The translations under genes and the position numbers were made by a program. A stretch of 64,000 nt of DNA, from the IMG/VR virus record IMGVR_UViG_3300030060_007988. The stretch is one strand, 5' to 3'. Numbering within the stretch: the stretch's first letter is position 1; every line of letters begins with the position of its first letter. Origin of the DNA: a virus. The notes beneath the pieces are model-generated. The model did no database searches. It had not been told where the DNA came from and saw only the letters and a program-made list of their open reading frames with translations. This document shows positions 7,238-33,841 of this stretch, one piece after another.

Positions 7238-7249
7238 TCATTAAAATAT

Positions 7250-11708: not shown

Positions 11709-12479
11709 ATGGCATTAGATTTAGAAGCTATAAGACAAAAGTTAAATAACTTACAAAGTCAAACTGGAAAACAGGATAACTTATGGAAACCTGAACCAGG
11801 AAAAAATCAAATTAGAATTGTACCATATCAGTATAATAAAGATAACCCGTTTATTGAATTATACTTTCATTATGATTTAGGTAAGAAAAACTACTTATCA
11901 CCTATTACATTTGGTGAAGCTGACCCAGCAGTTGAATTTGCTGAAAAGTTAAAAGCAACTGGAAATCAAGATGATTGGAAAATGGCAAGAAAACTAGAAC
12001 CAAAAATGAGATGTTATGTACCTGTATTAATTAGAGGTAAAGAATCAGAAGGTGTTAAATTTTGGGGATTTGGTAAAACTGTATATCAAGAACTGTTAAG
12101 TTTCATAGCAGACCCAGATTATGGTGACATTACTGATTTAAGATCAGGTAGAGATGTTGTAGTTGAGTATCTTACACCAGAAGAAGCAGGTAATAGTTTT
12201 GGTAAAACAACAATTAGAGTTAAGCCAAATCAAACAGCTGCAACAGAAGATAAAAATGTTGCTGAAAAAGTTGTAAGTGGTCAAAAAGATATAAACGAAA
12301 TCTTTAGAAAAGTTTCATACGATGATTTAAAAGCTGCATTGGAAACTTGGTTAGATCCAGAAAGTGAATCAGGAGAAAGTCCTTCACCAACTGGAAATGG
12401 TCAAACTACACAAGCAGATACAACAGTTAAAAAGACTGATGATATATCGGCAGCATTTGATAATTTGTTTGATAACTAG
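11709..12479 (+). CDS. Single-stranded DNA-binding protein (T4 gp32-like)
   Basis: LWKPEPGKNQIRIVP, VKFWGFGKTVYQEL, DYGDITD..GRD; acidic/aromatic tail AFDNLFDN. Confidence 0.8.
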   Translation: MALDLEAIRQKLNNLQSQTGKQDNLWKPEPGKNQIRIVPYQYNKDNPFIELYFHYDLGKKNYLSPITFGEADPAVEFAEKLKATGNQDDWKMARKLEPKMRCYVPVLIRGKESEGVKFWGFGKTVYQELLSFIADPDYGDITDLRSGRDVVVEYLTPEEAGNSFGKTTIRVKPNQTAATEDKNVAEKVVSGQKDINEIFRKVSYDDLKAALETWLDPESESGESPSPTGNGQTTQADTTVKKTDDISAAFDNLFDN

Positions 12480-19439: not shown

Positions 19440-20372
19440 ATGAAAAACTATTTAATTGGGTCAAATAATTATGCACTACTTGCTTCTTATCTTTTAAGTG
19501 ACATAACAATTATACCAACAAGTAAATTTGAAGCAAACAATGTAGAACCTGAATTCTTACCTAACACTCCGGAAATAATTAATATTGTAAATTCATTAGG
19601 ACTAAAATATAAGGTAAAAATATTAAATGCATTTTTTGATGATAGAGGCAAAATATCAACAGTACCTTCAGATTCATTTAAAAATGTATATGCACTATCA
19701 ACTAGGGGAAAACTTGCAGTTGAAAATAGTTACTTTGAAAAATTTAAAGGTAGCATGGAATATGTTTCAATAAAAAATAAAGGACCATTTGAAAGTTTCT
19801 ACTTACTATTTAAAGAGATTAAGAAAAATATTGTTCTTAAGGATATGATAGATTCTGAAATAGATTCTATTGGTGTTAAAGATAGTAACATAATATTATC
19901 AGATGGAAATATACTTGAATATAAAAGACTAATATGGACTGGTGATATAAAAAATTTAGATAAAAAACTTAATTTATTTACAAAAAAAATATATGTATAT
20001 GTATGTGAATACAATAACGAGGCTGATAAAAAAATGTCAAACTTTTTTAGCTTTGGATATTCAATAGGTAAAACATACTTTAGAACTATTTATTTAAAAG
20101 ACAAAATTGAATATCATTGTATGAAGAGAACATTTAAAGATGAAATTGATGGCAATAAAATAATAAACAGTTTTAATACAGAACAAATAATTGATAATTT
20201 AAGAAAAACAAACATGTATAATGTAGATCTAATAAGTATGTACTCACAGTGGAATTTAGGTTATTCAATTAGTCAAGCATACCGTGATTGTAAAGAATTG
20301 TATGAATATTACAATTTAGATAAAAAAATAGGTGATAATATTTTTAAATCCCAACAAAATTTGTTATATTAG
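19440..20372 (+). CDS. Hypothetical protein, possibly a degenerate FAD-dependent oxidoreductase/mutase fold
   Basis: N-terminal YLIGSNNYALLASYLL resembles a decayed Rossmann motif; DGNILEYKRLIWTG segment. Confidence 0.4.
   Translation: MKNYLIGSNNYALLASYLLSDITIIPTSKFEANNVEPEFLPNTPEIINIVNSLGLKYKVKILNAFFDDRGKISTVPSDSFKNVYALSTRGKLAVENSYFEKFKGSMEYVSIKNKGPFESFYLLFKEIKKNIVLKDMIDSEIDSIGVKDSNIILSDGNILEYKRLIWTGDIKNLDKKLNLFTKKIYVYVCEYNNEADKKMSNFFSFGYSIGKTYFRTIYLKDKIEYHCMKRTFKDEIDGNKIINSFNTEQIIDNLRKTNMYNVDLISMYSQWNLGYSISQAYRDCKELYEYYNLDKKIGDNIFKSQQNLLY
20342..20370 (+). promoter_or_regulatory. Promoter motif copy 5 (TTTTAAAT-N13-GTTATATT) heading the modification operon
   Basis: Same 13-nt spacing; two substitutions in the upstream box. 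Confidence 0.65.
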
Positions 20373-20398
20373 ATAAAATAAATAATAAAGGTTATATT

Positions 20399-21241
20399 AT
20401 GAATATTTACAAAAATCTTAATGAAGCATTCTGGCATGAACTTAATAGTATATCCATAATGGGTAAAAATGTAGAAAGCCGTGGTACAAAACAAAAAGAA
20501 ATACTTTTTAGAAATTTTACCATAGAAGATCCAACAGACTTAGATATAGTTTGGCCAAGTAGAAAATTTAATACAACATATACACTTGCTGAATTTCTTT
20601 GGTATCTGTCAAGAAATCCCAACTCAGTTAACATTGGAAAATTTGCAAGAATTTGGTTAAACATAAAGGATAATGAAGATAATGTAGAATCAAATTATGG
20701 CTGTTATGTATTTGGTAGTCAATGGGACTGGGCAGTAAAAGAATTGATAGATGACAAGGATAGTCGACGTGCAACATTTGTAATTGGTCAACCATATCAC
20801 AAAACAAAAAATCCTAATGATATACCATGTACACAATATCTTCAATTTTTTATACGTGACAATAAACTTCATATGGGAACATACATGAGAAGTAATGATA
20901 TTGTATTTGGTATGTCAAATGATATTTTTATATTTTGTTTGTTTCAACAATTAATGTTTAATGAATTAAAACAACATTACACTGATTTACAAATAGGTAC
21001 ATACCATCACCATGCGGGAAGTTTACATCTATATGAAACTCATTATGATATGGCTGCACAAATATTGGAGGGTGATAGGGCATCTGAGGATTATGAATTC
21101 TCAAGCAATATATTTACTCTTAAACCAAATGTAACATTAGATTACATACAACAAAATAATCTATATTTACCAGCCAAAGATATGACTAAAGAAGAAATTG
21201 GTGAATATGCAAAAACAACTGGTGAAAAATTATTTATATGA
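20399..21241 (+). CDS. dCMP hydroxymethylase-like thymidylate-synthase-family enzyme (T4 gp42-like)
   Basis: DSRRA, catalytic PCT, MRSNDIVFGMSND with Asp at the specificity position (E. coli ThyA N177 / T4 gp42 D179), GSLHLY. Confidence 0.85.
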   Translation: MNIYKNLNEAFWHELNSISIMGKNVESRGTKQKEILFRNFTIEDPTDLDIVWPSRKFNTTYTLAEFLWYLSRNPNSVNIGKFARIWLNIKDNEDNVESNYGCYVFGSQWDWAVKELIDDKDSRRATFVIGQPYHKTKNPNDIPCTQYLQFFIRDNKLHMGTYMRSNDIVFGMSNDIFIFCLFQQLMFNELKQHYTDLQIGTYHHHAGSLHLYETHYDMAAQILEGDRASEDYEFSSNIFTLKPNVTLDYIQQNNLYLPAKDMTKEEIGEYAKTTGEKLFI

Positions 21242-21519
21242 AAAAGAAATCAATACTAAATAAGGCTGATGAAATAATTAATAATCGTTCAGAAGAAAAA
21301 GAAAGAATGTACGGTCCTTTTAGTGAAGGAATGGAAAGGGCTGCAAAAATAGCAAGTGGCATGACAGGTAAAGACTTCCAAGCTGAAGATATGTATGCTG
21401 CATTGGTTGCACTAAAACTATCAAGACATTCATATAATTATCGTGAAGATAATTTATTAGATTGTGTTGCATATTTAGGTGCATTAGATAATTACATAAA
21501 GGAGAATAAGAATGGCTAA
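21238..21519 (+). CDS. DUF6378-like protein
   Basis: IL..A.EII..R....YG, LVALKLSR, DNLLDCVAY. Confidence 0.7.
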   Translation: MKKKSILNKADEIINNRSEEKERMYGPFSEGMERAAKIASGMTGKDFQAEDMYAALVALKLSRHSYNYREDNLLDCVAYLGALDNYIKENKNG

Positions 21520-21979
21520 TTTTGATAATGAATGTAAAGATTTAAATGTAAAAGATTCATATAGTGAATCAACAACTCATTTGCACGATATAATGAGTCA
21601 CCAAAAGTATATGCAAGAATATACTTATAAGTTAGATTTTTCAGAAATGACTATTGCTGAAATTATGAAGTTTTGGCATGCAAACAATCATGCAATTATT
21701 GATGAAATACATGAAATGACAGATGCTCTAGGTGGTATCAAGGATGGCTCAGGTAGTGCAGTTTGGAAATACTGGAAACAGGATCATAAGAAATACGAGA
21801 GTATGAAAATATCAGATCTATCTGAAGGAGATAGAAAAGAGTTATATATGGAATTTGTTGATGTACTACATTTCCTAATGAACTATGCAGCATCAATAGG
21901 ATTGGATGCAAAAACAGTATATAACTATTATTTTGCAAAAGCTGAGGAAAATAAGAAAAGACAACACCGAGGATATTAA
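21512..21979 (+). CDS. dCTPase/dUTPase (T4 gp56-like all-alpha NTP pyrophosphatase)
   Basis: NEC..L, IDEIHE, SAVWKYWK, ELYMEFVDVLHF and RQHRGY parallel T4 gp56 (SAVWKKWK, FELVDIFHF, RQDNGY). Confidence 0.88.
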   Translation: MANFDNECKDLNVKDSYSESTTHLHDIMSHQKYMQEYTYKLDFSEMTIAEIMKFWHANNHAIIDEIHEMTDALGGIKDGSGSAVWKYWKQDHKKYESMKISDLSEGDRKELYMEFVDVLHFLMNYAASIGLDAKTVYNYYFAKAEENKKRQHRGY

Positions 21980-22395
21980 TGGACAAACAAAGTAGATACG
22001 ACATGGCATATATGAAAATGGCTAAAGAATGGAGTCAACTATCATTTGCAAATAGAATGAAGGTTGGTGCAATTATAGTCAAAGACCAGCAAATTATTAG
22101 TGATGGTTTCAATGGTATGCCAAGTGGTATGGATAATTGTTGTGAAGGAGATGATGGACAAACAAAAAAGGAAGTTCTACATGCAGAGGCAAATGCAATT
22201 CTTAAATGTGCAAAACATAGGGGAGGTTGTGCGGGTTCAACTTTATATATTACATTAAGTCCATGCCAAGATTGTGCAAAACTAATTCACCAAGCAGGAA
22301 TTAAAAGAGTTGTTTATAGTGATATCTATAGACATGGAAATGGATTAGAATTCCTAAATAGTTGCGGAATAAAAACTGAAAAAATTAATCTATGA
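21979..22395 (+). CDS. cd: dCMP deaminase
   Basis: VGAIIV, GFNGMPSG, HAEANA, SPCQDC. Confidence 0.93.
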   Translation: MDKQSRYDMAYMKMAKEWSQLSFANRMKVGAIIVKDQQIISDGFNGMPSGMDNCCEGDDGQTKKEVLHAEANAILKCAKHRGGCAGSTLYITLSPCQDCAKLIHQAGIKRVVYSDIYRHGNGLEFLNSCGIKTEKINL

Positions 22396-22446
22396 AAACA
22401 CCTGCTTTGAACTTTTTAACTTGTATTTATATGAGAGGTAAAAAAT

Positions 22447-22722
22447 ATGGTATATGCAAATAAAAAAATAGATTGGAAAATAAATATGGTTACGGTCGGC
22501 AATTGTGATGAATGCAAAAGAGTACATCCATTAGTTTCAAAATTCTGTGCAAAAAATAACATTAAGTTAAACATAATTCCTAATGCGGAATATGATCCAA
22601 AGAAATGGAATTTTGTAAATCAAATATGGCCATTTTTTATTTTGGAAAAAAATGGTGAAAGTGTTTTAAAAATTAATGGATATAGAGGTGAATTTAAAAA
22701 AATTGAAAGGATGATATTATGA
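22447..22722 (+). CDS. Thioredoxin/glutaredoxin-like protein
   Basis: CDEC motif and a cis-Pro-like WPFFIL segment. Confidence 0.65.
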   Translation: MVYANKKIDWKINMVTVGNCDECKRVHPLVSKFCAKNNIKLNIIPNAEYDPKKWNFVNQIWPFFILEKNGESVLKINGYRGEFKKIERMIL

Positions 22723-24014
22723 AAATAGGAATAGGTAAAATGGGGAAATCAATGTTATTTTCTCAAAGTAAATGGGGATTGATTGGTGGCGATGCTGCAC
22801 CATCAATACTTTACACATCACTGGCATCAATAAATCCAAACATTACATTTTACATTGTAGGACGTTCTGACTTTTCAAAATTAACCAATGATGAAAAATC
22901 AAGACTATTTCCAAACAATAATGTTATAGACTGTTGGTCAGAAGCTGATATGAAAAATGCACATAGCAAATTTCATGCACCACTTGAATATGTAAACCAA
23001 CACAACATAAAATTGGATGCATTTGTTATGATGTCAGGAATGTGTAGTAGTGTTAATATGAATGATATGATTTGGAGTGTAAAGAATCCAGGAAAATATT
23101 CAAAGACATTATATCAATTCCATCACTATGCAGGTCCAATAATTCACTTTCTAAACATGACGCAAGTTCCAATGTTTACAATTAGTGAAGATCCTAGACA
23201 CATAAGACTTAATGCAAAAGATTTATTCAATAGGGAAAAATTTTGTTTAAGTCAAGAAAACTCAGTACAGAAAGTAAAGCATATAGTTAATTATGATGAT
23301 CAATCAACTGTTGAGTATGATATACCTGTTAAGTATGGTCAAACTGAAAAGATATTTTTAATTGGTGAAACTAAAAGGAATACACTAAAACTAAAAAAGG
23401 ATATTCCAATAACAATGTTTATGAATAGTCACACAATGAAATCAAAAGAAACCAGAAAACCGTTTATAGATGAATACATACACAGTAACTTTCCAGATTC
23501 AAAGGTTTATGGTAAATGGCCAAAGGAACTACTAGAAAGTGATAATAGATATGAAGCTATTAGAATGGGGGATATCATGGATGAAGTATTAAGAACAAAA
23601 TATACATTAGTGGTATCAATAAAACCAGGGTTTGTAACTTGTAAACCTTGGGAAATGATAAATTTTGGAATCATACCATTTTTACATCCAACATATGACA
23701 CTAACAATCTACTAGGATTTCCAGAATGGCTACATGTAAAAGATGCAAATGATTTTAAAAATAAGGTTGAATTTTTAGAAAACAATCCTGATAGGTATAT
23801 GAAGTTACGTGGATTACTACAAGATATGTTAGAACCAGAATTTTATGATGGAACATATATGAACAATTTAATTATGAGTAATGTATGTAATATGATAGGT
23901 AAAGAATATGAAAATGCTAATCAAGGAACATCAGTAAAAATGTCATCATTTTCAGAAAAAGAAAGTGTACAGAAAAAATTAAAAAAAGATAAAAAACAAA
24001 TGGAGTTATTTTAA
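22719..24014 (+). CDS. DNA glycosyltransferase, T4 beta-glucosyltransferase-like (GT-B fold)
   Basis: MKIGIGKMG vs BGT MKIAIINMG; ISEDPR vs FTDIR (catalytic Asp); FVTCKPWEM...YDT vs FITLRVWET...FDT; C-terminal QMELF. Confidence 0.75.
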   Translation: MKIGIGKMGKSMLFSQSKWGLIGGDAAPSILYTSLASINPNITFYIVGRSDFSKLTNDEKSRLFPNNNVIDCWSEADMKNAHSKFHAPLEYVNQHNIKLDAFVMMSGMCSSVNMNDMIWSVKNPGKYSKTLYQFHHYAGPIIHFLNMTQVPMFTISEDPRHIRLNAKDLFNREKFCLSQENSVQKVKHIVNYDDQSTVEYDIPVKYGQTEKIFLIGETKRNTLKLKKDIPITMFMNSHTMKSKETRKPFIDEYIHSNFPDSKVYGKWPKELLESDNRYEAIRMGDIMDEVLRTKYTLVVSIKPGFVTCKPWEMINFGIIPFLHPTYDTNNLLGFPEWLHVKDANDFKNKVEFLENNPDRYMKLRGLLQDMLEPEFYDGTYMNNLIMSNVCNMIGKEYENANQGTSVKMSSFSEKESVQKKLKKDKKQMELF

Positions 24015-24379
24015 TGAATGATACAAGACCTAAAACAATATTTTGTGACATAGACGGAACATTGGTTGAACATATGAAACCTAGTGAAGCAACTATGCCT
24101 TTTTCATGTATGAAGCCTTTACCAGGTGCAGTTGATAAATTATTAGAATGGGAAAGAAAAGGATATAACATTATACTTACAACTGGTAGAAGAAATTGTG
24201 CAAGAAAACAAACAGAAGAACAATTAGCAAATGCAGGTATAGTTTATGATCAATTGATTATGGGATTTGGTGGTGGAAAGAGATATCTAATCAATGATAG
24301 AAAACCTAATGGTGAAGAAGACTATGCAGTTGCAATAAACATAGAAAGAAATACAGGAATTGGAAATATAGAATTATGA
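24014..24379 (+). CDS. HAD-family phosphatase
   Basis: IFCDIDGTL (DxD), LTTGR, INDR. Confidence 0.85.
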   Translation: MNDTRPKTIFCDIDGTLVEHMKPSEATMPFSCMKPLPGAVDKLLEWERKGYNIILTTGRRNCARKQTEEQLANAGIVYDQLIMGFGGGKRYLINDRKPNGEEDYAVAINIERNTGIGNIEL

Positions 24380-24927
24380 ATTACGCCGAATTAAAAACAA
24401 CAGTGATGTCAGAAATAAATGATGTATTAACATCAGTAGATGAAAAATCGTTAGACATAATGTGTGACATAATACAATCATCAAATAAAATAGTTGTGGC
24501 TGGTGCTGGTAGAATGGGGTATTCAATAAAATGCTTTGGTATGAGATTAGGTCATATGGGATACCAAGCTTGGACTTTAGGAGATTCAACTGTACCTCAA
24601 ATAGGAAAAGGTGATTTATTAATAGTTGCATCAGGAAGTGGTGAAACTGAAACCATCTACAATATAGTTTTAAAAGCAAAACAGAATCGTGCAAAGGTGA
24701 TATTAATAACAACTAAAAAGGAATCAAGAATGGCTTCTTCATCAGACCATTTAGTAATTATGAATGCCGTTTCTGCCTTTACAGGTGATAGAGGAACTAT
24801 TCAGCCTATGAAAACATATGTAGAGCAGTCATTACTTATCTTATTGGATATTATGGCACTAAAACTTATGCAAGAGTCTGGTGAGACAAATTTCACAATG
24901 TCAAAAAGGCATTCACTTTTAGAGTAG
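24376..24927 (+). CDS. SIS-domain sugar-phosphate isomerase (HxlB/PHI-like)
   Basis: VAGAGRMG...FGMRLGHMG...GDLLIVASGSGET...HSLLE. Confidence 0.85.
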   Translation: MNYAELKTTVMSEINDVLTSVDEKSLDIMCDIIQSSNKIVVAGAGRMGYSIKCFGMRLGHMGYQAWTLGDSTVPQIGKGDLLIVASGSGETETIYNIVLKAKQNRAKVILITTKKESRMASSSDHLVIMNAVSAFTGDRGTIQPMKTYVEQSLLILLDIMALKLMQESGETNFTMSKRHSLLE

Positions 24928-24932
24928 AAAAT

Positions 24933-25631
24933 ATGAAAAACAAATTTATGATAGGTGCATCTTTAATATGTGGAAATCAAGCAGATTTAAAAGGTGACGT
25001 TGAATTACTAAAAAAATCAGGTCAAGTTGACTTTTTACATGTTGATACTATGGATGGATTGTTTGTACCTAGATATGGAATGTATCCTGAACAAGTAAAA
25101 CACATTAAAGAAATATGCGACATACCTGTAAATGTACATATGATGGTATCAAATCCTGAACCATTCATTGACTGGTTTGCAGAATCAGGTGCTGATATAA
25201 TTACAATTCATGTGGAACCTAATCAGCAATTAGGAAGAACTATCGCAATGATAAAAAAGGCAGGATGTAAAGTTGGACTTGCATTTAATATACATTCACA
25301 ATATCATATCATTGAAAGTTTTATAGACGATATAAGTTTAGTTATGTTAATGGCAATAAATCCAGGAATACTAGGACAAGGTTGTTGGCCAGGAATCTAC
25401 AATAAGATTGATAGATTTAGAAAGTATTTGGACAACAACGGAAGAAGAGATGTTATAATTGAGATAGACGGAGGTGTAACACCAGAAACAGCTCCTAAAT
25501 TAATAAAGGCAGGTGCAAATATGTTAACTTGTGGAACTGGAACAATATATAGACCTAAAGAGGCACCATTAGATATTAAGATTGGTCAATTTAAAAATAA
25601 AGTAAATAGGGAATTAGAATATGCAGTATAA
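24933..25631 (+). CDS. rpe: Ribulose-phosphate 3-epimerase family (Rpe/AlsE)
   Basis: LHVDTMDGLFVP, VHMMV, IHVE, MAINPG, IEIDGGV. Confidence 0.88.
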   Translation: MKNKFMIGASLICGNQADLKGDVELLKKSGQVDFLHVDTMDGLFVPRYGMYPEQVKHIKEICDIPVNVHMMVSNPEPFIDWFAESGADIITIHVEPNQQLGRTIAMIKKAGCKVGLAFNIHSQYHIIESFIDDISLVMLMAINPGILGQGCWPGIYNKIDRFRKYLDNNGRRDVIIEIDGGVTPETAPKLIKAGANMLTCGTGTIYRPKEAPLDIKIGQFKNKVNRELEYAV

Positions 25632-27249
25632 AGTATTATTAACAACTTCAGGTATAGGTAGTAGATTAGGTGAAATAACCGACTATACAAATAAAGGATT
25701 AGTCAAGGTTGGTAAAAAACCAGCAATATCTTACATTATTGAATCATATCCAAAAACAATGGAATTTGTTGTAACCATAGGATACTTTGCAGACCATGTA
25801 AGACAATTTCTAAACATTGCATATCCTGATAGAAAATTTACGTTTGTGGAAATTGATAACTATTCAGGTGAAGGAAGTAGTTTAGGATATTCTCAATTAT
25901 GTGCAAAGGAACATTTACAATGCCCATTTATATATAATGCATGCGATACTATAGTACTTGATACAATACCTGAACCTGATAGGGATTGGGTAGGTGGATT
26001 CAAACAAAAAGGATCCAGCCAATATGACAGCTATTGTGTTACAAATGGTGATGTTAAAGAGTTTTATACTAAAGGAAATATAGATTCTGATTATGTATAT
26101 ATTGGACTAATAGGTGTTAATGATTATGAAAACTATTGGGAAACAATGGAAAAACTATATAATGAAGATCATAATATGAGATCATTATCAGATCTATATT
26201 GTGTAAAGAATCAACTAAAAGAAGGCAAAAAAATATATCACAAACAATTTATGACATGGTATGACATAGGAAATGTTGAGTCTTTAAATAAAGCAAGGAC
26301 TGATATTCCAGACTCATTTAATATTTTAGATAAGTTAGAAGAATCTATTTATTTATTTGATGACCATGTTATTAAGTTTTTTGCAAATGAAAAAATGTCA
26401 ACACAAAGAGTTGATAGAGCATCTATCCTTGATGGTATGGTACCAAAGATTGTTGCTAAATCCCCAAACTTTTATAGATATGAATATGCCGAAGGTGATT
26501 TATATTCAAAGGTTGCAAATCCAATTACATTTATTAAACTATTAGATTGGGCAAAGGAAAATTTATGGAAAGAAAATGATGTTGTTAGTGAAACAGATTT
26601 TAGAAAAGCATGTATAGATTTTTACTATGAAAAAACAATATCAAGAATAAATAAGTTTTATGATTCAACTCGTAACCTTGATAAAGTAGAAACGATTAAT
26701 GGTTTGCAAACACCAACAATAAATGAAATGCTTAAAGCCATAAATAGTGATTGGTTATGTAAGCCAAAACAAACAGGCTTTCATGGTGACTTTATATTAG
26801 ATAATATAATTTTAGGAGAAGAAGGATTTACTTTACTTGATTGGAGACAAAATTTTGGAGGTCTTATTGAGTGTGGTGATATGTATTATGACTTGGCAAA
26901 ACTTAATCACAACTTAGTAGTTAATCATGAAATAGTAAACAATAATCAATTTAAAGTTACAAAATCAAAAGATAATATTATAGTTGATATACATAGACGT
27001 CAATCTCTAATTGAATGTCAACAGGTTTATCATAAATGGATTGTTGATAACGGATATGATTTAAGTAAAGTAAAAGTTTTAACATCTTTGATTTGGTTAA
27101 ATATGTCCGCACTTCACCATCATCCATTTGATGAATTTTTATATTATTATGGAAAATACACATTATTAAAAACATTAGGAGAATTAGAAAATGAATACGT
27201 TCCAACCTACAAACTTCAGTCCTCTAACAAAGTCTCAAACATACTTTAA
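25621..27249 (+). CDS. Sugar nucleotidyltransferase fused to an APH/choline-kinase-like phosphotransferase
   Basis: N-terminal TTSGIGSRL...NKGL...WYDIG; C-terminal FHGDFILDN...LLDWR...YYDLAKL. Confidence 0.85.
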   Translation: MQYKVLLTTSGIGSRLGEITDYTNKGLVKVGKKPAISYIIESYPKTMEFVVTIGYFADHVRQFLNIAYPDRKFTFVEIDNYSGEGSSLGYSQLCAKEHLQCPFIYNACDTIVLDTIPEPDRDWVGGFKQKGSSQYDSYCVTNGDVKEFYTKGNIDSDYVYIGLIGVNDYENYWETMEKLYNEDHNMRSLSDLYCVKNQLKEGKKIYHKQFMTWYDIGNVESLNKARTDIPDSFNILDKLEESIYLFDDHVIKFFANEKMSTQRVDRASILDGMVPKIVAKSPNFYRYEYAEGDLYSKVANPITFIKLLDWAKENLWKENDVVSETDFRKACIDFYYEKTISRINKFYDSTRNLDKVETINGLQTPTINEMLKAINSDWLCKPKQTGFHGDFILDNIILGEEGFTLLDWRQNFGGLIECGDMYYDLAKLNHNLVVNHEIVNNNQFKVTKSKDNIIVDIHRRQSLIECQQVYHKWIVDNGYDLSKVKVLTSLIWLNMSALHHHPFDEFLYYYGKYTLLKTLGELENEYVPTYKLQSSNKVSNIL

Positions 27250-27553
27250 GACTTGGGGCGAGAATAAGTCTGAATTATTAAAAGATCTATTCACAGACGA
27301 TATATTATTACAAGACTGGGATAATAAAGCAACTGGTATAGATGAAGTATTAGAAGCAAATGCAGCAATATTTGCCGGTGTAACAGATATTAAAGCAGTT
27401 CCTTTAATGATAAGAGTTGTTGATAACATAGCCTATTGTGAACTAGAAGTATTAGTAAAGGCAGAAGGTACTATAAGTAAAATTTTAGTATTGGATATAA
27501 TAACTTTTGATGAGGAAGGAAAAATTAAATCAATAAGAGCATATAAAGGGTAA
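27191..27553 (+). CDS. SnoaL/NTF2-like protein
   Basis: LFTDDILLQDWD...VLDIITFDEEGKIKSIRAY. Confidence 0.75.
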   Translation: MNTFQPTNFSPLTKSQTYFKTWGENKSELLKDLFTDDILLQDWDNKATGIDEVLEANAAIFAGVTDIKAVPLMIRVVDNIAYCELEVLVKAEGTISKILVLDIITFDEEGKIKSIRAYKG

Positions 27554-27555
27554 AC

Positions 27556-28803
27556 ATGAAACACGCAACAATAATTCCTTTAATAGGTGGCATGACACTT
27601 GCAAATAAAAAGATAACTGGTAAAGATCCAGAAGTTATATTATCATACTCACCGTTTAAGGCAAACGATAGTCACATAACTAAATATCTTCCAAAAGTAC
27701 CATATAAAGTATTAGATGATATGGGAGATGATGAAAAAAATATATTAATTGAAAAACTAAAAGGAAAACTTGATTTTGTTTCAACTGTTTGTCCTTGTGC
27801 AGGATTGGCAGGTACAAATACTGCACCTAAAACAAGTAGTAAAGGTCGTGGAGCACATGCAGAACAAAATCAATGGATGTATAAAAGTGCAAAGCTAATT
27901 TTAGAAGATATAAAACCAAAAGTATTTTGGGGAGAAAATGCGCCAGGCCTATTTACTAAAATGGGTGTAGAGGTTGCAGATAATCTTAGAAAAATTGGTG
28001 AAGATGCAGGATATAGCTTTTCAATGATTAAGACAAATACAGAGCTACATGGAATACCTCAGAGAAGAATTAGAACATTTTATTTTTTCTGGGATAGTCC
28101 TTCCCCACCACTCTTTAATTGGGTTAAGAGAGATACTCCAAAACTATTAGACTATCTTGGTGAAATACCAAAAGATGCAACACAATTTGATATGAGAATA
28201 TGGATGGATCCTGTTACTGTTAAATATCCACCATATAAATTTTTATTAGATAAATTAGGTTTGACTCATGAACAAATGGTTAAAAAAGTTGGAAAGGGAA
28301 CTGTATTTAGATATATGCAAGACAATGATTTATTTGATGAGTGCCTAGACTGGCTAAAAGTACACGCACCAAATGATGGTCCTAGTGGAGGAAAACCAGG
28401 AACAAATACTTATATTGATATCATTAATCATATAAAAAATAAATTGGCTGATGGGAAAGGATATTGGGATAGTTCACCGCATTTATTTCACGAATCATTT
28501 AATGCAGTTATTGGAAGAAATATGTTTGATGGTGTACATCCAATTGAAAATAGATATATGAGTGTTAGAGAATATATTCATATGATGGGAATGCCTCATG
28601 ACTTTGAACTTGACAATATTAAAAACATAAATCATATTGCACAAAATGTTCCTGTAGGTACGGCATCAGATATGACCCAACATGTTGTTGATTATATAAA
28701 CGGAAAGTCATCATTATCAGATTCAAAGTTTTTAAAACAAGATAATGTTTCTAGAAAAACTGATGTAATTACAAATGAAAAACAACTTGAACTTTTTTCA
28801 TAA
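27556..28803 (+). CDS. C5-cytosine DNA methyltransferase-like protein with atypical motif I
   Basis: Motif I IPLIGG (normally FxGxGG), IV CPCAG, VI ENAP, VIII PQRRIRTF, X AQNVP; C-terminal QLELFS. Confidence 0.8.
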   Translation: MKHATIIPLIGGMTLANKKITGKDPEVILSYSPFKANDSHITKYLPKVPYKVLDDMGDDEKNILIEKLKGKLDFVSTVCPCAGLAGTNTAPKTSSKGRGAHAEQNQWMYKSAKLILEDIKPKVFWGENAPGLFTKMGVEVADNLRKIGEDAGYSFSMIKTNTELHGIPQRRIRTFYFFWDSPSPPLFNWVKRDTPKLLDYLGEIPKDATQFDMRIWMDPVTVKYPPYKFLLDKLGLTHEQMVKKVGKGTVFRYMQDNDLFDECLDWLKVHAPNDGPSGGKPGTNTYIDIINHIKNKLADGKGYWDSSPHLFHESFNAVIGRNMFDGVHPIENRYMSVREYIHMMGMPHDFELDNIKNINHIAQNVPVGTASDMTQHVVDYINGKSSLSDSKFLKQDNVSRKTDVITNEKQLELFS

Positions 28804-28808
28804 AATAT

Positions 28809-28837
28809 TTTTTTATATCGTGAGAAATGGTTATATT
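28809..28837 (+). promoter_or_regulatory. Promoter motif TTTTTTAT-N13-GTTATATT, copy 6
   Basis: Exact match upstream of the polB unit. Confidence 0.75.

Positions 28838-31899: not shown

Positions 31900-33840
<1,941 letters not shown>

Positions 33841-33841
<1 letters not shown>

Follow-up and report, generated by a model that had tools for sequence, protein, structure and literature searches.

The operon described here lies in a 64,000-nucleotide stretch of viral DNA (IMG/VR record IMGVR_UViG_3300030060_007988; hereafter, the window) and is a candidate for the hypermodification of cytosine with a sugar activated by phage-encoded enzymes. An open reading frame (ORF) check with Pfam, PHROGs and NCBIfam placed 12 ORFs between 20399 and 28803, all on the + strand, with gaps or overlaps of at most ~50 bases. 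In order, these encode a thymidylate-synthase homolog, a DUF6378 protein, a gp56-like pyrophosphatase, a dCMP deaminase, a small thioredoxin-fold protein, a GT-B glycosyltransferase, a small HAD phosphatase, a SIS sugar-phosphate isomerase, a ribulose-phosphate 3-epimerase (Rpe) family enzyme, a nucleotidyltransferase–kinase fusion, a SnoaL-like protein and a DNA C5-cytosine methyltransferase (MTase)-like enzyme. An earlier reading made from the letters alone (the sequence-only reading) had described a tightly coupled gene string with these families. The string was borne out, and each family call was confirmed, by Pfam, PHROGs or NCBIfam for most and by fold for the transferase and the thioredoxin-like protein.

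Two copies of a two-part motif, ATTTTTNNAT-N13-GTTATATT, bound the string on the + strand, one upstream of the operon (20340-20370) and one opening the following transcription unit (28807-28837), each start lying 2 bases from where the sequence-only reading had put its promoter copies (20342 and 28809). No copy lies between them, so 20399-28803 is plausibly one transcription unit. The motif occurs 7 times in the window versus 0.02 expected, always intergenic and on the + strand, and it appears to represent a phage-specific promoter class that divides the replication and modification region into units. The copies, at window positions 7248, 11049, 11455, 13931, 20340, 28807 and 34279, each stand directly upstream of a gene start. 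GTTATATT alone was tried as the promoter core and dropped, since 14 matches against 8.8 expected is not significant; only the two-part motif is. A scan for sigma-70 and terminator consensus sequences gave matches no better than chance.

The first gene (20399-21241; PF00303, E 1.8e-16) is predicted to encode a dCMP hydroxymethylase of the gp42 type. Among solved structures, it is closest to the CMP hydroxymethylase MilA (93 bits) and T4 gp42 (67 bits). In direct alignments with T4 gp42 and RB69 gp48, the window synthase reads NDIPC and MRSNDIVFGMSND, and at the equivalents of E. coli ThyA positions 143, 146, 169 and 177 it carries Asp, Cys, Asp and Asp, identical to T4 gp42. RB69 gp48, a proven 5-hydroxy-dCMP synthase (PMC13326640), has Glu, Cys, Asn and Asp at these positions; around position 169, the window synthase reads RSND versus RSQN in gp48. 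Enzymes that use dCMP are recognised by Asp at ThyA N177, and those that make a product other than the methylated one by an acidic residue at L143 (PMC13326640). The DNA of RB69 and DLP3 contains arabosylated 5-hydroxycytosine, not hydroxymethylcytosine, and the thymidylate-synthase homologs of both phages have Asn at the position of ThyA Asp169 (PMC13326640). Because the window enzyme shows the gp42 residue signature and no RB69-type Asn, it is most likely a dCMP hydroxymethylase, and the base is most likely 5-hydroxymethylcytosine (5hmC). These data support a cytosine-directed thymidylate-synthase homolog, as in the sequence-only reading, and the Asp residues at the L143, D169 and N177 positions further point to the hydroxymethylase type. 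Within the limits of the empirical rule, the signature appears to settle the choice between a hydroxymethyl and a hydroxy product, which that reading had left open. The same signature was found in 56/56 synthase homologs that adjoin this transferase family.

Two further genes are predicted to act on the nucleotide pool. A gp56-like dCTP/dUTP pyrophosphatase of the MazG type (21512-21979; phrog_173) matches T4 gp56 with 29% identity over 150 aa (E 2e-22), and it is followed by a dCMP deaminase (21979-22395; PF00383, E 7e-25; phrog_174, E 3e-57). Indirect experimental support for cytosine modification by such synthases comes from Enterococcus phages VPE25 and VFW, whose synthases are 38% identical to that of the window and whose cytosine-modified DNA is cut by PvuRts1I (PMC4999554). 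Beyond that paper, we found no literature on the glycosyl chemistry of 5hmC in Enterococcus phages.

The predicted GT-B DNA glycosyltransferase (22719-24014) has 431 aa, including a flexible C-terminal tail ending in QMELF, and gave only weak Pfam matches. We modelled its structure from 34 homologs (mean predicted local distance difference test, pLDDT, 90.6). T4 β-glucosyltransferase (BGT) supplied the four best solved matches of this model (Foldseek E 1e-8), with a VIA Z of 21.3 and a root-mean-square deviation of 4.2 over 312 aligned residues. The next-best entry reached Z 18.4, the HY126 arabinosyltransferase Z 16.1 and T4 α-glucosyltransferase (AGT) Z 15.6. Of the 77 + strand ORFs of the window, two have a C-terminal Q[LM]ELF, those of the transferase and the MTase-like protein (23997-24014 and 28783-28803). 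These tails resemble the bacterial clamp-binding motif QL[SD]LF and would suit enzymes that work on DNA just after its replication. Homologs from other phages do not keep the tail.

Four sugar genes come after the transferase. The first encodes a small HAD phosphatase with a DIDGT motif (24014-24379; HAD matches in Pfam and NCBIfam), predicted to strip the terminal phosphate of a sugar bisphosphate. It is homologous to the HAD of Enterococcus phage Planchet (E 4e-9), and its match to the solved structure 1xpj reached only E 0.74. RB69 gp51, considered as a counterpart, gave no alignment. The second gene encodes a SIS isomerase of the 6-phospho-3-hexuloisomerase (HxlB) type (24376-24927). On NCBIfam models it scored 169.8 bits for HxlB (TIGR03127; equivalog cut-off 160), versus 27.7 bits for KdsD (cut-off 505) and 23.3 bits for GutQ. 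Among solved structures, Bacillus subtilis YckF gave 108 bits and the Bacteroides fragilis arabinose-5-phosphate isomerase 3etn gave 22 bits; identity to RB69 gp55 was 27%, over 118 aa only. Homologs with ~50% identity are labelled hexuloisomerase by their source records, and a recorded contig of 140 kb has the same isomerase. By these scores, the enzyme is of the HxlB type, not of the KdsD/GutQ/3etn arabinose-5-phosphate isomerase type. No gene of the OMPdecase/hexulose-phosphate synthase family, which includes the HxlA partner, was found in the operon or in an 81-kb near-identical record, where the search control worked; a host enzyme may fill this role. We set aside a reversed ribulose monophosphate scheme, in which the isomerase and a hexulose-phosphate synthase release formaldehyde or ribulose-5-phosphate: no such synthase gene was found, and the fixed link to the kinase fusion would be left unexplained. 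In a Pol A phage (L008, 10247-11230), one protein combines an N-terminal KdsC-type HAD phosphatase with an HxlB-like isomerase, which ties phosphatase and isomerase to one pathway.

The third sugar gene (24933-25631) encodes an enzyme of the Rpe family (PF00834, E 1e-53, 182 bits). NCBIfam scores were 177 bits for TIGR01163 (cut-off 212.6), 173 for NF004076 (cut-off 165) and 145 for the AlsE model (cut-off 271). The fourth (25621-27249; Pfam, NCBIfam) encodes a fusion of an N-terminal sugar-1-phosphate nucleotidyltransferase and a C-terminal APH/choline-kinase-like anomeric kinase. This is, as judged from sequence, the AfhE-type domain order, and AfhE is also the type of the RB69 nucleotidyltransferase and kinase arrangement (PMC13326640). 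The fusion is collinear with RB69 gp53 plus gp52 at marginal similarity (E 0.009 and 4e-5), and its best solved relative, 1jyk, is listed for RB69 as well (PMC13326640). The closest homolog in a phage record (46% identity) belongs to Marine virus AG-345-E15 (L002, 5710-13800). It is neighboured there by a HAD, a cupin mannose-6-phosphate isomerase, an NAD-dependent epimerase/dehydratase and a second APH-like kinase, with no synthase or BGT-like gene recognised; this island looks like an equivalent activation module with another front end.

Together, these assignments favor, with a probability of about 70%, an operon that joins a T4-like pre-replicative pathway for cytosine hypermodification to its own sugar-nucleotide pathway. 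The gp56-like pyrophosphatase would convert dCTP to dCMP, which the gp42-type synthase would hydroxymethylate; a kinase not seen among the operon genes would raise the product to the triphosphate, and the polymerase would insert 5hmC into DNA. The dCMP deaminase would supply dUMP for thymidylate. In parallel, an aldose phosphate would arise from a central ketose phosphate through the Rpe-like epimerase and HxlB-like isomerase, the kinase part of the fusion would phosphorylate the anomeric carbon, the HAD would remove the distal phosphate, and the nucleotidyltransferase half would make the nucleoside diphosphate (NDP)-sugar. Finally, the BGT-like GT-B enzyme would place the sugar of this donor on the hydroxymethyl group in DNA. 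By this analogy, we infer that the donor sugar comes from the phage route, not from host UDP-glucose.

The sugar steps are modelled on the Afh routes of RB69 and HY126, on NDP-heptose routes and on a fixed cellular cassette described below, and remain predictions by analogy. The NDP-heptose route (GmhA, HddA or HldE, GmhB, HddC) and the MupP/AmgK/MurU salvage route each use a SIS isomerase, anomeric phosphorylation, a HAD and a nucleotidyltransferase, without a mutase. The window pathway differs in that the kinase is APH-like and fused to the nucleotidyltransferase, the SIS enzyme is of another subfamily, and an epimerase is added. A heptose analogy has been drawn for the Afh route (PMC13326640).

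Several points weigh against this reading of the operon. Every enzymatic step is assigned by homology, and the Asn-169 criterion is an empirical correlation from a single paper (PMC13326640). The transferase is not significantly similar to T4 BGT by BLASTP (E 0.17), and its family hidden Markov model (HMM) does not reach T4 BGT at E 1e-5, so the link to BGT goes through the fold; other GT-B enzymes reach Z 15-18 on the same model. The term 'T4 BGT-like', used in the sequence-only reading, holds for the fold and fails for membership of the BGT (GT63) or AGT sequence families. By the NCBI cut-off, the isomerase is a true 6-phospho-3-hexuloisomerase, whose textbook reaction gives no aldose, so the proposed aldose-forming step would need a changed specificity. 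The kinase fusion also occurs in non-DNA glycan contexts, namely AG-345-E15 and cellular loci. No dNMP kinase for the modified nucleotide was found in the operon, and there was no PF02223 match in the 81-kb record, which is only 49% complete; the label 'self-contained', given in the sequence-only reading, is therefore not established. Lastly, it is hard to see what a C5-methyltransferase would act on in fully hydroxymethylated DNA; the role of the MTase-like enzyme is thus unexplained, and part of the model may be wrong.

To see how widely these genes travel together, we collected relatives of the transferase, whose family counts 65 or more unnamed homologs. Searching IMG/VR with the family alignment returned 80 loci, and iterated HMM searches of their ORFs yielded 34 transferase clusters at 80% identity on viral contigs. 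Partners were counted in the 31 dereplicated clusters with at least 12 kb of sequence. The MTase-like gene was present in 25/31, the synthase in 23/31, the kinase fusion in 22/31, the HAD in 18/31 and the dCMP deaminase in 16/31; SIS and Rpe, always together, were found in 6/31. Partner genes always share the strand of the transferase. Synteny of the module is kept in phages with unrelated replication machinery (Pol III alpha, Pol A, Pol B and T4-like), and in a Pol III-alpha phage (L007) the string runs in identical order, SnoaL-like and MTase-like genes included. Further transferase neighbourhoods lie in the Pol A phage mentioned above, two T4-like contigs (L009, L010), another Pol B phage, Pseudoalteromonas phage vB_Psh_XG4 and Enterococcus Denvervirus phages. 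Enterococcus phages 9183 and Planchet, which are related to VPE25 and VFW, combine a synthase, a HAD and a kinase fusion with this transferase family. Phage vB_Psh_XG4, on which we found no literature, is a cultured carrier of a simpler module and opens the question to direct test. In variants of the module without SIS and Rpe (L010, 12194-13375; L011, 4238-5344), the kinase fusion or the first transferase is separated from the MTase-like gene by a second transferase, which in L010 is of the T4 AGT family (PF11440).

The spacing of the sugar genes bears on whether they serve DNA at all. They could instead serve a glycan island at 35.9-56 kb, or glycans of the virion or host surface, leaving the BGT-like enzyme to use host UDP-glucose as in T4. 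The window does hold such a large island, the cellular relatives of the cassette sit in surface-polysaccharide loci, and the closest phage homolog of the kinase fusion lies in the AG-345-E15 sugar island, where no synthase or BGT-like gene is visible. Against this, the two promoter copies enclose the sugar genes, which follow the transferase and precede the MTase-like gene. Across phage backbones, the kinase fusion was within 3 kb of the transferase in 54/54 loci and SIS and Rpe in 13/13, and the HAD adjoined it in 35/52. The island also has its own cytidylyltransferase and UDP-GlcNAc 2-epimerase. We therefore consider a purely non-DNA role improbable. Sugar genes beside the same transferase family in unrelated backbones argue that they belong to the DNA-modification unit, which supports the view that they do not feed the downstream island, a doubt that the sequence-only reading had raised.

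The island itself (window 35900-56000) is co-directional and encodes two GT4-type and several GT2-type glycosyltransferases, a TOD1/MUCI70-like protein, a carbamoyltransferase and a 2-hydroxyacid dehydrogenase, in addition to the two enzymes just named. It may extend the DNA-linked sugar, or it may decorate virions or the host surface.

The last gene of the operon (27556-28803; PF00145, E 5e-14) encodes the MTase-like enzyme, whose tail ends in QLELFS. Its structural model (pLDDT 90.5) gave fold Z scores of 25.9 for M.HaeIII, 25.1 for HhaI and 24.2 for CmoX. In an alignment of 24 members, the catalytic motifs IV (PC; P80, C81), VI (EN; E127, N128), VIII (RxR; R171, R173) and X (QNVP; 363-366) were invariant or nearly so. 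As read from the alignment, the family has PLIGG and SYS/GYN where a canonical AdoMet site would show FxGxGG (motif I) and the acidic residue of motif II. On the model, the enzyme appears to be a complete DNA C5-methyltransferase fold with intact catalytic motifs, and we infer that it acts on DNA too. Its gene was on the strand of the transferase in 78/78 loci, within 3 kb in 73/78 and adjacent in 33. Across dozens of phage lineages, no gene accompanies the transferase more constantly than this C5-MTase-like one, for which no known pathway provides a function. One viral contig (L059, 10834-13259) has two tandem MTase-like paralogs directly after the transferase.

Such constancy raises the question of whether modification is mainly post-replicative, with the MTase-like enzyme making the handle (5-methylcytosine or another C5 adduct), as in MT/5mYOX/GT systems or with CmoX, and the synthase in a side role. 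Five clusters have the transferase and MTase-like gene with no synthase within 10 kb, and there are precedents among phage C5-MTase homologs for a different transfer chemistry, namely CmoX (PMC12783734) and those of MT/5mYOX/GT clusters (10.1101/2023.12.21.572611). However, 5-methylcytosine offers a glycosyltransferase no hydroxyl, and no TET/JBP-type oxygenase is encoded in the operon: Tet_JBP had no match in the 12 ORFs or their flanks, nor in the 81-kb record, where the control genomes gave no signal either and the search is uninformative. The synthase and MTase-like gene occur together in 20/31 clusters and do not replace each other, and a dCTPase with a dCMP deaminase is a hallmark of pre-replicative replacement. 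Nor is CmoX a close sequence relative. A CmoX-type carboxymethyltransferase was set aside for this gene, as the operon has no CmoA, CmoX was absent from the phmmer matches, and its fold Z of 24.2 ties with ordinary methylases. A mainly post-replicative route is thus highly improbable, and the pre-replicative pathway outlined above is preferred.

For the sugar genes, relatives outside phages were informative. A 704-kb Microgenomates contig from a metagenome-assembled genome (MAG) and a second cellular contig each have a polysaccharide locus in which SIS, Rpe, a gene for a 522-528-aa protein and a HAD-like gene are accompanied by Wzx, Wza, glycosyltransferases and a TylF-type O-methyltransferase. 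The 522-528-aa proteins are 54% and 50% identical to the window fusion over their full length; the SIS homologs are ~50% identical, and the window epimerase is 41% identical to cellular Rpe. Scanning 185,579 species genomes for the cassette gave 76 loci, 37 of them with flanks, mostly in MAGs of Patescibacteria, Bdellovibrionales, Bacteroidota and Gammaproteobacteria. The order SIS-Rpe-fusion was kept in 33/37 cellular loci with flanks. None of the cellular cassette loci examined (0/78) had the synthase, the BGT-like transferase or the MTase-like gene. Cellular and phage copies are alike in gene order and in these identities and differ in company, the cellular ones standing among polysaccharide genes and having a HAD of another subtype. 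The common order and identity indicate that the phage captured its cassette from a cellular NDP-sugar pathway. We did not find the cellular SIS-Rpe-fusion pathway described in the literature, nor a hexuloisomerase or 3-epimerase linked to phage DNA modification or glycan loci.

Which sugar this pathway makes is a separate matter, for which D-arabinofuranose is the established precedent. The same operon could make plain arabinose: Rpe would give ribulose-5-phosphate from xylulose-5-phosphate, the HxlB-like enzyme would be an arabinose-5-phosphate isomerase, and the fusion and HAD would work like AfhE and AfhF, the product being arabinosyl-hydroxymethylcytosine. The kinase fusion and small HAD share the architecture of the characterised arabinose route (PMC13326640), and no phage-made pentose other than arabinose has yet been proven on cytosine. 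By textbook reasoning, moreover, the hexuloisomerase reaction is the arabinose-5-phosphate isomerase reaction on a substrate one hydroxymethyl longer. The isomerase scores given above speak against arabinose, both the HxlB over KdsD and YckF over 3etn preference and the short alignment with RB69 gp55. In addition, relatives without SIS and Rpe in Gram-positive hosts, such as Planchet, cannot draw on arabinose-5-phosphate, which argues that the kinase family is not tied to arabinose. SIS and Rpe also always occur together (6/6 phage clusters, 33/37 cellular loci). Housekeeping rpe and, in Gram-negatives, kdsD are usual in such cells. If cells with the cassette keep these genes, the dedicated epimerase and isomerase pair probably acts on another substrate, in parallel with AlsE in the allose operon. 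One relative even has an epimerase with a higher score on the AlsE model.

On balance, we consider plain arabinose unlikely, though a serious contender. The sequence-only reading had argued from the added epimerase that the sugar is 'not simply arabinose'. The epimerase alone is a weak argument, because Rpe could simply feed ribulose-5-phosphate into an arabinose route; the HxlB-type isomerase and the fixed cellular cassette add weight to that claim. We put D-arabinofuranose at about a quarter to three-tenths of the odds and a hexose derived from allulose-6-phosphate (allose or altrose) at about three-tenths to a third, with other pentoses or other sugars taking the remainder. Even an arabinose outcome would be an undescribed base, because documented arabinosyl-cytosine sits only on 5-hydroxycytosine. 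Our most specific proposal is tentative, possible rather than probable. In it, the DNA would hold an undescribed base, 5hmC O-linked to a rare sugar other than glucose or arabinose (for example, allose or altrose via allulose-6-phosphate, or a xylulose-derived pentofuranose) from the captured cellular pathway. The MTase-like enzyme would then perform a second, non-classical reaction on C5-substituted cytosine, either activating the hydroxymethyl through Cys-C6 for exchange or derivatisation or transferring a non-methyl group as CmoX does.

Compared with the T4 system (gp42, gp56, cd, gp1, AGT/BGT), the operon shares the gp42 signature, the gp56-like dCTPase, the dCMP deaminase and a BGT-fold GT-B transferase. 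It differs in having its own four-gene NDP-sugar route, whereas T4 uses host UDP-glucose, and in a transferase without detectable sequence relation to BGT. Genes for a C5-MTase-like enzyme, a SnoaL-like protein and DUF6378 come in addition, a gp1-type kinase was not detected in the operon, and the phage backbone is unrelated. With the Afh system of RB69, DLP3 and HY126 (PMC13326640), the operon as interpreted here has in common a thymidylate-synthase homolog acting on dCMP, a phage-made NDP-sugar via a SIS isomerase, a nucleotidyltransferase–kinase fusion and a small HAD, and glycosylation on DNA. Here the window synthase has Asp169 (hydroxymethyl) versus Asn169 (hydroxy) in Afh, the isomerase is HxlB-type versus KdsD/GutQ-type, an Rpe-family epimerase is added, and the first transferase is BGT-like versus GT4-like (HY126 transferase Z 16.1, BGT Z 21.3). 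Similarity is marginal for the kinase fusion and nil for the HAD. The metaviromic C5-MT/5mYOX (TET)/GT clusters (PMC8256090; bioRxiv 10.1101/2023.12.21.572611) likewise pair a C5-MTase-family gene with a DNA glycosyltransferase. In that work, non-glucose sugars (Hex, HexNAc, HexA) were shown on 5hmC, and GT-B enzymes were found near thymidylate-synthase homologs, APH-type kinases and methyltransferases (10.1101/2023.12.21.572611). In contrast, no 5mYOX gene was seen here, and 5hmC is predicted to arise before replication by the gp42-type enzyme, leaving the MTase-like gene without an assigned step.

The overall strategy (T4, RB69), non-glucose sugars on 5hmC and the loose association of GT-B, thymidylate-synthase, APH and MTase genes are therefore already known. 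We did not find in the literature a hydroxymethyl-type synthase combined with a phage-encoded sugar-nucleotide route, which is described there only with 5-hydroxycytosine. Nor did we find the HxlB/Rpe-type front end, its derivation from a cellular glycan cassette, or the constant MTase-like partner. Cytosine sugar coats decide which restriction, CRISPR and type IV defences a phage escapes or triggers, and they are also tools for 5hmC mapping. Naming the sugar once would annotate phage DNA chemistry together with many bacterial surface-glycan loci, in candidate phyla radiation (CPR) bacteria, Bdellovibrionales and Bacteroidota.

Three small genes of the operon stand outside the proposed steps. 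The DUF6378 gene (21238-21519; PF19905, E 1.3e-10) also adjoins the synthase in the Pol III-alpha phage and the MTase-like gene in the Pol A phage. The small thioredoxin-fold protein (22447-22722; 91 aa, CDEC motif) had no Pfam or PHROG match; in the ESM Atlas its feature score was 0.95, with TM scores of 0.70-0.74 to thioredoxin clusters. The SnoaL_2/SnoaL-like protein of NTF2 fold (27191-27553; PF12680, E 9e-8) has a counterpart at the identical position in the Pol III-alpha phage.

The operon is flanked upstream by the large subunit of ribonucleotide reductase and downstream by a family-B DNA polymerase, which is at most ~25% identical to any phage record. No near-identical DNA was found among phage records, and IMG/VR held only 99%-identical fragments. 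The 310-aa ORF directly upstream (19440-20372) had no Pfam, PHROG or PDB sequence match. Its language-model features (0.95-0.96) are similar to those of FAD-binding oxidoreductases (NAD_binding_8, DAO), with a dinucleotide motif at the N-terminus that seems degenerate. In the second cellular contig (L092), a gene of the DAO family also stands directly upstream of the cassette. Elsewhere in the window, 32192-33841 and 11709-12479 encode a GroEL-type chaperonin of the phage (PF00118, E 1e-68) and a single-strand-binding protein resembling gp32.

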